Below, in pieces: positions 1-5,802 of a stretch of DNA of 64,000 nucleotides. The stretch lies in NCBI RefSeq assembly GCF_045037415.1, contig NZ_CP173438.1, one strand, 5' to 3'. Position 1 is the first letter of the stretch. Every line of letters starts with the position of its first letter. This stretch comes from Escherichia coli (GTDB taxonomy: Bacteria; Pseudomonadota; Gammaproteobacteria; Enterobacterales; Enterobacteriaceae). Below the pieces are notes generated by a model. It was not told the DNA's origin. It saw only the letters and a list, made by a program, of their open reading frames with translations, and ran no database searches. The translations under genes and the position numbers were made by a program.

Positions 1-695
1 ATTACCGCCGCTTCCAGCGGATCGACATTGCGCGACACAATGCTTTGTAATGCGGTGGTGATATGTGCGGCAACCAGCACTGGATCGATGGCTTTGTGCG
101 GGATCGCACCGTGTCCGCCACAACCACGAACCGTAATATGGAACTGATCCATTGACGCCATCAGCGCCCCAGGCTGGAAGAAAAACTTGCCGACCGGCAA
201 ACCCGGCATGTTGTGCATCCCGAAAATGACATCGCAGGGGAAACGATCAAAAAGCCCCTCTTTAACCATGATCTCACCGCCGTTAATCATCTCTTCCGCT
301 GGCTGGAAGATAAGGCGTAACGTGCCGTTAAAACGGCGGGTTTCGGCAAAATAACGCGCGGCCCCCAGCAGTATGGTGGTATGCCCGTCATGCCCGCAGG
401 CGTGCATTAAACCAGGATGTTTACTGGCCCAGGGCTTGCCACTATTTTCATAAATCGGCAACGCATCCATATCCGCCCGCAGGCCAATACTTTTCTCTCC
501 GTCGCCCACTTTTAACGTGGCTACCACGCCGGTTGTCGCCAGCCCTTGCTCAACCTCATAGCCCCACTGGCGCAGCTTTTCCGCAACCAAAGCACTGGTT
601 TTAAATTCTTGTAATCCCAGCTCCGGGTTTTCGTGGATCTGATGGCGGATCTCGCGAAGTTCTTCCTCAAACCCACGAATATAGTGTTCGATCAT
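1..695 (-). CDS. M20D-family amidohydrolase (hippurate hydrolase/aminoacylase-like), N-terminal ~231 codons; 3' end lies beyond window start
   Basis: Manual reverse-strand translation from ATG at 693-695 gives MIEHYIRGFEEELREIRHQIHENPELGLQEFKTSALVAEKLRQWGYEVEQGLATTGVVATLKVGDGEKSIGL...; metal-binding signature MHACGHDGH encoded at 381..407. Absent from the ORF track because no stop lies inside the window. Confidence 0.7.
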   Translation of the reverse strand, partial: MIEHYIRGFEEELREIRHQIHENPELGLQEFKTSALVAEKLRQWGYEVEQGLATTGVVATLKVGDGEKSIGLRADMDALPIYENSGKPWASKHPGLMHACGHDGHTTILLGAARYFAETRRFNGTLRLIFQPAEEMINGGEIMVKEGLFDRFPCDVIFGMHNMPGLPVGKFFFQPGALMASMDQFHITVRGCGGHGAIPHKAIDPVLVAAHITTALQSIVSRNVDPLEAAV

Positions 696-1024
696 CGGCT
701 ATTCCTTTATTCACTTATAAACAGGCTAATTAACGGATTTTATTGATGGTATAAATACAAATAACCCATCAATATAAAATATTTATACATTTGTTTTATA
801 AGAAGATTTCATAAAGACAATAACAAAAAAGCACGCTTCGGCAAGATAAAACTATCAGCCATAAGAAAAAGCGATTAATAGTGAATAAATAAAATAAGAA
901 GGAGGAAGACAAAGCAAAGGCCGCTCACGATATAGCCAGATAAATGACGGGGATCAATTGGCTTACCCGCGATAAAATGTTACCATTCTGTTGCTTTTAT
1001 GTATAAGAACAGGTAAGCCCTACC

Positions 1025-2425
1025 ATGCCACATTCCTACGATTACGATGCCATAGTAATAGGTTCCGGCCCCGGCGGCGAAGGCGCTGCGATGGGCCTGG
1101 TTAAGCAAGGTGCGCGCGTCGCAGTTATCGAGCGTTATCAAAATGTTGGCGGCGGTTGCACCCACTGGGGCACCATCCCGTCGAAAGCTCTCCGTCACGC
1201 CGTCAGCCGCATTATAGAATTCAATCAAAACCCACTATACAGCGACCATTCCCGACTGCTCCGCTCTTCTTTTGCCGATATCCTTAACCATGCCGATAAC
1301 GTGATTAATCAACAAACGCGCATGCGTCAGGGATTTTACGAACGTAATCACTGTGAAATATTGCAGGGGAACGCTCGCTTTGTTGATGAGCATACGTTGG
1401 CGCTGGATTGCCCGGACGGCAGCGTCGAAACACTAACTGCTGAAAAATTTGTTATTGCCTGCGGTTCTCGTCCATATCATCCAACAGATGTTGATTTCAC
1501 CCATCCACGCATTTATGACAGCGACTCAATTCTTAGCATGCACCACGAACCGCGCCATGTACTTATTTACGGTGCTGGAGTGATCGGCTGTGAATATGCG
1601 TCGATCTTCCGCGGTATGGATGTAAAAGTGGATCTGATCAACACCCGCGATCGCCTGCTGGCATTTCTCGATCAAGAGATGTCAGATTCTCTCTCCTATC
1701 ACTTCTGGAACAGTGGCGTAGTGATTCGTCACAACGAAGAGTACGAGAAGATCGAAGGCTGTGATGACGGTGTGATCATGCATCTGAAGTCGGGTAAAAA
1801 ACTGAAAGCTGACTGTCTGCTCTATGCCAACGGTCGCACCGGTAATACCGATTCGCTGGCGTTACAGAACATTGGGCTGGAAACTGACAGTCGCGGACAG
1901 CTGAAGGTCAACAGCATGTATCAGACCGCACAGCCGCACGTTTACGCGGTGGGCGACGTGATTGGTTATCCGAGCCTGGCGTCGGCAGCCTATGACCAGG
2001 GGCGCATTGCCGCGCAGGCGCTGGTGAAAGGTGAAGCCACCGCACATCTGATTGAAGATATCCCTACCGGCATTTACACCATCCCGGAAATCAGCTCTGT
2101 AGGCAAAACCGAACAGCAGCTGACCGCGATGAAAGTGCCATATGAAGTAGGCCGCGCCCAGTTTAAACATCTGGCACGTGCACAAATCGTCGGCATGAAC
2201 GTGGGCACGCTGAAAATTTTGTTCCATCGGGAAACAAAAGAGATTCTGGGTATTCACTGCTTTGGCGAGCGCGCTGCCGAAATTATTCATATCGGTCAGG
2301 CGATTATGGAACAGAAAGGTGGCGGCAACACTATTGAGTACTTCGTCAACACCACCTTTAACTACCCGACGATGGCGGAAGCCTATCGGGTAGCTGCGCT
2401 AAATGGCTTAAACCGCCTGTTTTAA
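1025..2425 (+). CDS. sthA: soluble pyridine nucleotide transhydrogenase
   Basis: 466-aa [28 protein letters not shown]-binding N-terminus, matches remembered E. coli SthA length and sequence. Confidence 0.95.
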
Positions 2426-3325
2426 CACTTTATCGAAATGGCCATCCATTCTTGCGCGGATGGCCTCTGCCAGCTGCTCATAGCGGCTGCGCAGCGGTGA
2501 GCCAGGACGATAAACCAGGCCAATAGTGCGGCGTGGTTCCGGCTTAATGCACGGCAGATAAACAACCCCATCGCGTTTGCGTTCCGGCGGCACAGCCAGC
2601 GCAGGCAGTAAAGTGATCCCGCTACCTGCCGCCACCATGTTGCGCAGAGTTTCCAGGCTGGTCGCGCGGAAGTGTGTATCTTCATCCGCCCCGGCTTCAA
2701 AACAGAAACCCATTGCCTGATCGCGCAAACAGTGACCATCTTCCAGCATCAGCAGTTTTTCCCCTGCCAGATCGGCCATCGGTACGCATTCGCGGTTCGC
2801 CCACGGGTGGTCTTCATAGATAGCCAGCAACATTGGCTCATCAAACAACGGCACTTCAATGAATGCTTCGCTCTCTTTCACCAGCGCGAGGATCACGCAA
2901 TCGAGTTTGCCGCTGTCCAGTTGCGCCAGTAACTGGTGGGTCTGTGCTTCATGCAGATACATTTCCAGCTTTGGAAAGGTCTGGTGCAGCATCGGGATAA
3001 TATGCGGTAGCAGGTACGGTCCAACCGTGGGAATCAAACCAATATGCAGCGGTCCGGACATCGTCTCGCCCTGCTGGCTTGCCATCTCTTTAAGGACTTT
3101 CACCTCACGCAGCACGGTACGCGCCTGATCCACCAGCAGCATTCCCGCCTGGGTGAATAACACTTTACGGCTGGTCCGCTCCAGCAACATCACGCCCAGC
3201 TCATCTTCCAGCTTACGAATTTGCCCGCTAAGCGTCGGCTGGCTAACGTGGCAGGAATCTGCCGCACGCCGAAAATGGCGGTGTTCAGCCAATGCCACCA
3301 GGTACTCAAGATCACGAATATTCAT
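2408..3325 (-). CDS. oxyR: LysR-family oxidative stress regulator OxyR
   Basis: Track ORF 2408..3355; start trimmed to [40 protein letters not shown] (305 aa); 3' end overlaps sthA 3' end by 18 bp. Confidence 0.95.
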
Positions 3326-3420: not shown

Positions 3421-3535
3421 GAAACGGAGCGGCACCTCTTTTAACCCTTGAAGTCACAGCCCGTTTCGAGAGTTTCTCAGCTCGAATAACTAAAGCCAAC
3501 GTGAACTTTTGCGGATCTCCAGGATCCGCTTTTTT
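3421..3535 (+). ncRNA. oxyS: OxyS small regulatory RNA
   Basis: Sequence begins gaaacggagcggcacctcttttaacccttgaagtca and ends with hairpin gcggatctccaggatccgc plus T-tract (3511..3537); divergent from oxyR. Confidence 0.85.
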
Positions 3536-3591: not shown

Positions 3592-4965
3592 TTACCCCAA
3601 CCGCGCCTGCGCAAAAGCAATCGCCTGCGCCACCTGTTGCGGTGAGACACCGCCTTTTGCCGCACGCTTGTCGAGGCACGATTGCAGCGACAGAATCGGA
3701 TAGACATCTTCGCCAATCACCAGGCTGAATTTCTGCAACTCACTGAGTGGCAGATCTTCCAGCGGTTTGCCCTGACGAATGGCTTCCACCACCGCTTCAC
3801 CCACAATATGGTGCGCCTCGCGGAACGGTACGCCTTTCGCCACCAGATAATCCGCCAGTTCAGTAGCGTTGGAGTAACCCTGCTGCGCCGCTTCCTGGCA
3901 ACGCGGACGTTTCACCTGAATGCCGTCCAGCACCAGCGCCGCCATATGCAGGCAGTCCAGCCAGGTATCGAGCGCGTCGAACAGACCTTCTTTGTCTTCC
4001 TGCATATCTTTGTTGTAAGCCAGCGGCAAACCTTTCAGCGTCATCATCATGCCGGTTAACGCCCCCTGCACCCGACCGCATTTACCGCGAATCAGCTCCA
4101 GCGCATCCGGGTTTTTCTTCTGCGGCATTAATGATGAACCGGAAGTCACACGGTCAGAAAGCTCCACAAACCCCGCTTCGCCGGTGTTAAAGAAAATCAG
4201 ATCTTCAGCAAAACGCGACAGATGCACCATGCCGATAGCGGCAGCAGAAAGCAGTTCCAACACATGGTCACGGTCAGAAACGCTGTCGAGACTGTTACGG
4301 GTCGCCGAAGCAAAGCCCAGCCAACCTGCTAACTGTTCACGGTCGATTTCATAGGCCGTTCCTGCCAGTGCGCCACAGCCTAGCGGGCTGACATCCAGAC
4401 GCTTAAGCGCATCCTGCAAACGGCTTTCATCACGCGCCAGCATCTCAACGTAGGCCAGGCACCAGTGCGCGAACGTCACCGGCTGGGCGCGTTGCAGGTG
4501 GGTGTAACCCGGCATCACCGCGTCCTGATTGTTCTGCGCGGTCTCGACCAGAGCGGATTGTAACTGCCGGTTAGCCGTCAGCAACTCGCTAACGGTATCT
4601 TTGCACCACAGTTTCAGGTCAGTTGCTACCTGATCATTACGGCTACGCCCGGTATGCAATTTTTTGCCTAACTGACCCACTTTGTCGATCAGTTTGCCTT
4701 CCACCCAGCTATGGATATCTTCGGCGTCGCTTTCAAGGATTTGTTGTGGCCTGGCGCGAACATCTTCCAGCAGCACGTTCAGCGCCTCTTCCAGTTGCGC
4801 CTGCTCTTCTGCGGTTAACACGCCGACCGTTACCAGGGCTTTGGACCAGGCCACAGAGCCAACAATATCCTGCTCCGCCAGACGGTAATCAAAGCGCAGT
4901 GAGTCGTTGAATTGTTTGAACCGTTGATCTGCTGCCTGGGTAAAACGCCCGCCCCAAAGTGCCAT
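3592..4965 (-). CDS. argH: argininosuccinate lyase
   Basis: 457-aa ORF starting [34 protein letters not shown]; position in argCBH operon. Confidence 0.95.
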
Positions 4966-5025
4966 AACTCTGTTTCCTTATTTTGAAATTCAATGCCGGA
5001 AAGCTGCGCCTCCGGCCAACAAAAC

Positions 5026-5802
5026 TTAAGCTAAAATCCGCGTCCCCATCGGCATACCGTTAAACAGTGCCGGAAGCTGTTCCGCATGACGCCAGGAGGC
5101 GATATCTACCGGACGGCCCAACGTGCGCGCAGCATCCAGCGCCGCGTTCACTTTCACAATCATGCCGTCAGTAATAATGCCCTGCTCAATCAGTTGTTCT
5201 GCTTTCGCGGCGGTCATTTCGGCAATACGTTGCCCTTTGCCGTCGAGAATGCCGCTGACGTCAGAGAGCAAAATCAGATCCGCGCCCAGCGTTGCCGCCA
5301 GCGCCGTCGCCGCCTGGTCGGCATTGACGTTCATCAGTTGCCCTTCGTCTGTTACGCCAATGGAGCTGACCACCGGCAGATAACCGTTCTCCAGCAAACT
5401 GTTGATAAGCTTAGGCGAACCTGGCTGCGCCAGTCCAACATGGCCTAACTCTTCATCAAGCTGGGTCACTTTGATGCTGTCGCCGTCACCGAGAAACAAA
5501 CCTACGGCCGCAATCTGATGTTTCTTCGCCCATGCCAGCAGGGTTTTATTTGCCGTTCCCGCCAGTGCTCCGGTGATAATGTCTATCTGATCCGCAGGCG
5601 TCACCCGCAGGCCATTTTTCTTTTTCACCGGCAGATTCAGCCCTTTCATCAGCTCATCCACCACACAACCGCCGCCGTGCACAATCACCAGCGGACGCTG
5701 ATGTGACTCGCGATAATTCACCAGTGCGCTAAACAGACGTTCCAGCGCCTCTTCACTATCCAGCAGTACGCCACCCAGTTTGATAATTAATGGATTCATC
5801 AT
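5026..5802 (-). CDS. argB: acetylglutamate kinase
   Basis: Track ORF trimmed to [24 protein letters not shown] (258 aa). Confidence 0.93.

Follow-up and report, generated by a model that had tools for sequence, protein, structure and literature searches.

The convergent sthA-oxyR overlap of Escherichia coli: 18 shared coding bases, predicted 3'-end hairpins in the partner gene and a sense/antisense duplex

Convergent genes that terminate inside each other raise the question of where, and by what means, their transcripts end when no intergenic space is left for a terminator, and whether the overlapping messages affect each other. In Escherichia coli, sthA, encoding the soluble pyridine nucleotide transhydrogenase, and oxyR form such a pair. 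Here, we report a computational analysis of their junction in a 64,000-nucleotide stretch of E. coli DNA (the window, to which positions refer unless K-12 or other coordinates are given), in which published maps of RNA ends, Rho-dependent termination and double-stranded RNA (dsRNA) are read together with a comparison of the locus among Enterobacterales. The explanation that we consider probable is that of an ancient convergent pair with Rho termination and protective hairpins situated in the codons of the partner, the tail of SthA dictating the 18 shared bases. The features of the junction are collected in Table 1.

Table 1. Features of the sthA-oxyR junction, with window positions unless stated otherwise
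Feature	Position	Strand	Description	Basis
sthA coding sequence	1025-2425	+	466 aa, soluble pyridine nucleotide transhydrogenase; stop TAA 2423-2425	ORF list, RefSeq (SA186, K-12)
oxyR coding sequence	2408-3325	-	305 aa, start MNIRDLEYL at 3325; stop TAA is the reverse complement of TTA 2408-2410	ORF list, annotation
Shared coding segment TTAAACCGCCTGTTTTAA	2408-2425	both	18 bp	sequence
Predicted hairpin H_s, sthA 3' UTR	2440-2465	+	GGCCAUCC-N10-GGAUGGCC, 8 bp, no U-tract; in oxyR codons 288-297	inverted repeat, fold
Predicted hairpin A, oxyR 3' UTR	2362-2393	-	CUACCCGA-N16-UCGGGUAG; 15 nt past oxyR stop; in sthA codons 446-457	fold
Predicted hairpin B, oxyR 3' UTR	2315-2359	-	AAAGGUGGUG.UGACG-loop-UGUUG.CGCCACCUUU, about 15 bp; in sthA codons 431-445	fold, RNAalifold
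3' end of mature sthA mRNA	2470 (K-12 4159345, minus strand)	+	5 nt after H_s, 45 nt after stop	Adams et al. 2021 (PMC7815308), TRS (PMC10687069)
3' end of mature oxyR mRNA	2311 (K-12 about 4159504, range 4159500-4159510)	-	foot of hairpin B; 3' UTR of about 97-100 nt	TRS Supplementary Data 2 and 4 (PMC10687069)
Rho termination region, peak, sthA read-through antisense to oxyR	2800 (K-12 4159015, minus strand)	+	Rho score 5.8 (5.81), p=6e-31	PMC7815308 Supplementary file 2
Rho termination region, peak, oxyR side	K-12 4159509 (+)	- in window	Rho score 5.1 (5.10), p=3e-16	PMC7815308 Supplementary file 2
Fully complementary stretch of the two mature mRNAs	2311-2470	both	160 nt	mapped 3' ends
p19-captured, RNase III-generated dsRNA cluster 'oxyR sthA 3' Convergent'	2360-2704 (old 4157134-4157478)	both		Huang et al. 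2020 Table S1 (PMC7373196)

The overlap and its range among Enterobacterales

The overlap of the convergent 3' ends, which a sequence-only reading of this DNA had reported, is real, conserved and already known. It occupies 2408-2425 in the sequence and in the list of open reading frames, in which the annotated oxyR start, MNIRDLEYL, is internal to the listed frame; the same 18 bp are shared in the PGAP annotation of the identical strain SA186 and in that of K-12 MG1655 (oxyR, 4158490-4159407; sthA, 4159390-4160790). The segment TTAAACCGCCTGTTTTAA is read as L-N-R-L-F-stop in SthA and as L-K-Q-A-V-stop in OxyR, and because of the antisense register of the two frames, the stop codon of either gene is a rare TTA leucine codon of the partner. 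Reannotation of either stop codon is not realistic. The E. coli OxyR crystal constructs (PDB 1I69/1I6A) span residues 87-305, the structure of a distant SthA homologue in the PDB can be aligned to residue 466, and both C-termini are credible as annotated.

Convergent pairs account for 75 of the 663 overlapping adjacent gene pairs of E. coli (PMC4161906). Like other convergent overlapping pairs of bacteria, sthA and oxyR are two real genes on opposite strands with common 3' coding ends, their overlap arises and varies via movement of a stop codon (here that of oxyR, giving 18, 27 or 43 bp), and their junction is conserved above the level of a typical intergenic one. There is no essential difference from other such pairs, 18 bp being a mid-sized overlap; what is unusual is that 3'-end maps have been published for both partners.

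Across 2.6 kb around the overlap, the window is 100% identical to several sequenced E. coli strains, and all but one of the 5426 complete genomes contain the locus. For comparison between species, one genome per species was searched with SthA, yielding 80 loci, all from Enterobacteriaceae, which together with two E. coli records make a sample of 82. Both genes are present in 81 loci and convergent in every one, with an overlap of 18 bp in 79 and of 27 bp in two. The longer form, found at loci L011 and L075 and probably at the truncated locus L023, which has the same codon variant, goes with CTG instead of TTA or CTA as the codon for Leu462 of sthA; through this change, the oxyR stop is lost and oxyR becomes three codons longer. 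Outside Enterobacteriaceae, look-ups of single proteins gave seven loci, all from Enterobacterales, Brenneria not being among them. Five of the seven have the 18-bp overlap (Pantoea and Tatumella of Erwiniaceae, Hafnia and Edwardsiella of Hafniaceae, and Serratia of Yersiniaceae), one has an overlap of 43 bp, and one has none. These counts agree with the description of the overlap as a conserved feature of the locus rather than a novelty.

The 43-bp overlap, the longest seen, belongs to Pectobacterium zantedeschiae (L087, 3865-3907), where OxyR is called at 314 aa and ends in LSPFNAATR, a tail with no relation to LKQAV, suggesting that oxyR has changed frame or lost its stop. The locus without overlap is that of Dickeya dianthicola (L084, 3894-4023), with an AT-rich spacer of 116 bp instead, in which 15 nt of the shared segment are duplicated in tandem and followed by an 18-nt repeat in about 3.3 copies; a consensus scan of this spacer found no terminator. 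In Kluyvera genomosp. 3 YDC799 (L082, 2501-3897), the match to sthA lacks one base and the frame is disrupted close to the N-terminus, reflecting either a frameshifted gene or a sequencing error in a complete genome.

The two proteins differ in how they read the shared bases. In 84 of the 87 overlapping loci, the reading in SthA is LNRLF-stop, against ten different OxyR readings of the same 18-mer; the SthA tail, NGLNRLF, is near-invariant, and distant OxyR structures are alignable only to about residue 290. Together, these observations suggest that SthA dictates the shared sequence and that the OxyR tail is a labile extension, consistent with the standard origin of convergent overlaps by stop-codon movement. 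The asymmetry that the aligned sequences point to is an addition of the present comparison to the published record.

The surroundings of the pair vary. In this strain, genes for an M20 aminoacylase and a citrate-proton symporter lie between sthA and fabR (window 1-906 and past the left edge); in K-12, fabR is the immediate upstream neighbor of sthA. Of 5426 E. coli genomes, 1507 match over all of 1-1024 and the others match only from about 907, so that the region upstream of sthA beyond about -118 differs between strains. On the far side of oxyR, a gene for a peroxiredoxin-glutaredoxin hybrid (AhpC-TSA and Glutaredoxin domains) is divergent from oxyR in Pantoea (L083), Hafnia (L085), Serratia (L086), Edwardsiella (L088) and Tatumella (L089), at about 4930-5700 of these loci, which is the position of oxyS in E. 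coli.

Published mRNA ends and the predicted hairpins next to them

Mapping of both transcripts by Term-seq or a similar method, which the sequence-only reading had proposed, has already been published, and with ends at 2470 for sthA and about 2311 for oxyR, convergent transcription does overlap at this junction. The curated Term-seq list classes the sthA end, 4159345 (-), as 'primary sthA, antisense oxyR' (PMC7815308, Supplementary file 1), with read counts of 78427.8 and 54987.4 under two of the three tabulated conditions, a level similar to that of the oxyS terminator, and TRS gives it as 'Primary sthA' at 4159340-4159349 (PMC10687069, Supplementary Data 2). The oxyR end is missing from one curated Term-seq list (PMC7815308) and is weaker in TRS (PMC10687069). 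Rho termination regions, that is, bicyclomycin-sensitive ones, are present on both strands of sthA/oxyR (PMC7815308); in the published tables, the sthA-side region lies about 330 nt downstream of the mapped sthA end.

In the junction (2300-2480), a consensus scan found no canonical terminator, with a GC-rich hairpin and a U-tract, on the relevant strand. A consensus match at 2261-2281 (+) lies inside sthA, is not conserved, and was rejected as a terminator. An Rfam search placed no family at the junction and returned OxyS only. The mapped ends fall 5 nt (sthA) and 0-4 nt (oxyR) past the hairpins predicted here. At the DNA level, H_s is a perfect 8-bp inverted repeat, GGCCATCC-N10-GGATGGCC, 15 nt past the sthA stop, with a predicted folding energy of -15.1 kcal/mol. 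The RNA past the oxyR stop, which would form hairpins A and B, has a minimum free energy of -43.1 kcal/mol (z=-3.2), equalled in stability by one of 200 shuffles, and hairpin B can be extended to 2311-2365. The tails past the hairpins are UCUGCCAGC and CUGUUCCAU, and no U-tract follows any hairpin. Downstream of the two ends, the bias of C over G that a rut region would show is mild (C/G of 142/116 and 128/114 overall, with a local peak of about 2 at 2670-2770 on the + strand). The earlier statement that the pair leaves no room for separate terminators holds for intergenic space only and is otherwise misleading, each gene having its own 3'-end hairpin inside the coding sequence of the partner.

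About 1 kb from this junction, another convergent pair is formed by oxyS (Rfam OxyS, 132 bits, 3421-3530, +) and argH (stop at 3592, -). In contrast to sthA and oxyR, their short spacer contains canonical terminators, hairpin plus T-tract, at 3511-3529 (+) and 3569-3547 (-).

Dar and Sorek (2018, PMC6061677) described a class of Rho-terminated transcripts whose steady-state end lies immediately past a stem-loop that has no U-tract, in some cases within downstream coding regions. The sthA and oxyR transcripts are similar to this class in that their precise ends lie a few nucleotides past a stable hairpin without a U-tract, inside the neighboring gene, and in that Rho-sensitive read-through occurs farther downstream. 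They differ in being reciprocal, with both convergent members behaving in this way, and exonuclease trimming is proposed here by analogy. Given this reciprocity, every hairpin has to double as coding sequence for a part of the partner protein. A likeness also exists to bidirectional intrinsic terminators between convergent genes, since both directions end within a common short region; however, no single hairpin flanked by an A-tract and a U-tract was found at the sthA/oxyR junction, which instead has separate predicted hairpins for the two strands, about 50-125 nt apart and without A- or U-tracts, along with probable Rho dependence.

Conservation of the embedded hairpins

The predicted stem of H_s shows two-sided compensatory changes in three of its eight pairs across the 82 loci. 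Where one side only has changed, the result is a G.U pair on the + strand in seven of seven loci, whereas A and C would be mismatched on the - strand. In the hypervariable loop, 56 different sequences occur among the 82 loci. One of the compensations links a silent change in oxyR, D295 GAT to GAC, with the non-synonymous I290V: the two co-occur in a table of 8, 0 versus 2, 63 (Fisher p=3e-9, uncorrected for phylogeny).

Synonymous sites point in the same direction. The oxyR codons A289 (GCC) and G296 (GGC) have the second-lowest synonymous entropy among 59 Ala and 54 Gly columns, respectively, and the synonymous entropy of I290 is low as well. The four-fold sites of these two oxyR codons and of sthA T443 and T444 are nearly frozen, and the same amino acids vary in codon usage elsewhere. 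In each of the two genes, the window of lowest synonymous entropy coincides with the hairpins; in sthA, this window comprises codons 437-453.

For hairpins A and B, RNAalifold finds 99.4% of cells paired, and all of the 10-11 variable pairs are wobble-compatible on the - strand, with true two-sided covariation in one pair only. As the changes are almost all one-sided wobble changes, a column-shuffle control for covariation is uninformative. A ranking was used as the control instead, comprising all stems of at least 7 bp predicted from the E. coli sequence in both genes and on both strands. Among these 92 stems, in which a mean of 84% of cells are paired, hairpin B, H_s and hairpin A are the top three by conservation, with B ranking first.

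In all three cases, pairing is better preserved on the strand that carries the mapped 3' end: hairpin B is fully paired in 96% of species on the - strand and in 56% on the + strand; hairpin A, with 97% of cells paired, in 76% on the - strand and in 52% on the + strand; and H_s in 94% on the + strand and in 85-89% on the - strand. The comparative counts come from related species, are uncorrected for phylogeny, and concern stems picked from one aligned sequence, that of E. coli. The non-conserved inverted repeat at 2261-2282 (I1) served as the negative control for an unconstrained coding background. The pairing of H_s itself is lost in Pseudocitrobacter and one Enterobacter sp. and, in part, in Mangrovibacter. 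Beyond Enterobacteriaceae, the H_s sequence gives way to different hairpins, such as GCTCGCGGA-N5-TCCGCGAGC in Hafnia and Edwardsiella, and the hairpin B region persists.

For hairpins A and B, the case for selection consists of the wobble asymmetry, the synonymous constraint and the rank against other stems of the same E. coli sequence. The comparison across species indicates that the embedded hairpins are probably under RNA-level selection, atop the coding constraint of the host gene, and this, too, is an addition of the present work.

Duplex formation, rival explanations and significance

With the ends mapped at 2470 (+) and 2311 (-), the mature sthA and oxyR mRNAs share 160 nt of complementarity. 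That sense and antisense RNA pair in vivo is documented by the dsRNA cluster captured with p19 after RNase III cleavage, which also indicates that sthA transcripts extend well past H_s. The cluster is entered twice, as nos. 268 and 345, along with an operon overlap of 379 nt taken from an earlier operon map in which sthA ends near window position 2677 (PMC7373196); we take the two entries to represent the exponential- and stationary-phase lists. The shift of +1977 applied to the old coordinates of these tables was derived from the oxyR coordinates given there.

The p19 data contain another cluster, at the 5' end of sthA (window about 1012-1215; old 4158623-4158826), with an antisense start noted at 4158793 (+). 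This 5' cluster, with the start noted for it, implies that antisense transcription passes over the start codon of sthA. A mechanically called ORF of 82 aa, 980-1228 (-), is located at the same cluster.

The pair is explicitly listed among the 165 convergent pairs of the E. coli excludome (ExcludonFinder, PMC12288877). The likeness to excludons lies in the overlapping convergent transcripts and the RNase III-processed dsRNA; the mutually exclusive expression that defines the class is hypothetical for sthA and oxyR. A literature search for direct study of antisense coupling between these genes returned ExcludonFinder only, the rest being irrelevant (for example, Salmonella sth fimbrial genes). 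The suggestion of the sequence-only reading that convergent transcription could couple these redox-related genes is accordingly possible but unproven. Compared with the classical excludons of Listeria, the sthA/oxyR overlap is short.

The explanation that we prefer would operate as follows. With no spacer present, the 3' UTR and the 3'-end-forming hairpin of each gene would lie within the coding sequence of the other. Transcription would pass the gene's own stop codon, enter the partner gene and be halted there by Rho, as the published genome-wide bicyclomycin data suggest; the RNA would then be trimmed back to, or in part stopped at, a stem-loop without a U-tract, trimming being proposed by analogy with the Dar and Sorek class. 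The stem-loops would be H_s for sthA and hairpins A and B (2315-2393) for oxyR, and the outcome would be the precise mature ends that have been published. Comparative evidence suggests that the hairpins are maintained by RNA-level selection on top of the coding constraint of the host gene. In the shared 18 bases, the SthA C-terminus, LNRLF, would dictate the sequence and the non-conserved OxyR tail would change freely. The sense/antisense duplex of at least 160 nt, whose cleavage by RNase III is published, would be a by-product, any regulatory effect of it being hypothetical. Both Rho dependence and exonuclease trimming are read here from genome-wide tables, as opposed to locus-specific ones.

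Several of the same observations could be read in other ways. The overlap might exist, or be retained, because convergent transcription and RNase III make sthA and oxyR antagonistic, linking the NADPH/NADH balance to the peroxide response. The place of the pair in the excludome, the dsRNA cluster, apparently in both growth phases, the complementarity of the mature mRNAs and the conservation of the arrangement across five families would all fit such coupling. However, overlapping coding sequences always yield overlapping transcripts, which makes the listing as an excludon automatic; dsRNA read density in 3' convergent overlaps is, on average, 37.9-fold below that in 5' divergent overlaps (PMC7373196); and in Dickeya, the two genes stand 116 bp apart and neither has been lost. 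We therefore consider coupling of this type unlikely as the explanation of the overlap. OxyR is, moreover, regulated mainly post-translationally and by autorepression. A related notion is that of a selected reciprocal module, in which the hairpins in the partner's codons and the duplex of at least 160 nt would allow OxyR to be tuned against SthA by RNase III and by convergent polymerase traffic; this strikes us as quite unlikely. If it were true, inducing sthA would reduce oxyR mRNA and vice versa, and NADPH supply would be linked to the peroxide response throughout Enterobacterales.

The hairpins could also be non-canonical intrinsic terminators, or bidirectional ones assisted by collision, at which polymerases pause and meet head-on, Rho only clearing the read-through. 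Their symmetry about the junction, each starting 15 nt past a stop codon, and the precision and abundance of the 3' ends, with a sthA read count about that of the oxyS terminator, speak for such an arrangement, and a 2022 bioRxiv study reportedly proposed collision-driven bidirectional termination for convergent genes of E. coli. Yet the hairpins lack U-tracts and the consensus scan gave no terminator at the junction, transcripts run past H_s (the dsRNA cluster reaches 2704 and the operon-map end of sthA is at about 2677), and the bicyclomycin-sensitive region lies about 330 nt farther downstream, all of which makes intrinsic or collision-assisted termination at the hairpins improbable to a high degree. 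We find it just as improbable that overlap and hairpins are functionless, the former a product of neutral stop-codon drift and the conservation of the stems a side effect of protein or codon-usage constraint. Such drift would account for the poor conservation of the OxyR tail, its changes of length by stop loss (the 27-bp overlaps of L011, L075 and probably L023, and the 43-bp overlap of Pectobacterium) and the end of alignable distant OxyR structures near residue 290, and it sits well with the frequency of convergent overlaps, 75 in E. coli, and with the single two-sided covariation in hairpins A and B. It does not readily account for the two-sided changes in three pairs of H_s, including I290V tied to the silent change in D295, for a strand-specific wobble asymmetry that agrees, in each of the three hairpins, with the strand on which the 3' end is mapped, or for four-fold sites near-frozen at oxyR A289 and G296 and sthA T443 and T444 and variable elsewhere; the non-conserved repeat I1 illustrates how unconstrained coding sequence behaves.

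Everything essential in this picture is already public, namely, the overlap in annotations, both 3' ends, the Rho regions, the dsRNA cluster and the 'excludon' label, and the locus is of little importance as a discovery. It serves better as a teaching case, of how, without intergenic space, 3' UTRs and RNA-stabilizing hairpins come to sit in the codons of a neighbor, and of how one partner, SthA, fixes a shared sequence while the tail of the other drifts. Because the hairpins lie inside the partner gene, deleting or recoding either 3' end removes the 3' UTR hairpin of the other gene, and knock-outs of oxyR or sthA that reach the stop codon may be polar on the neighbor.
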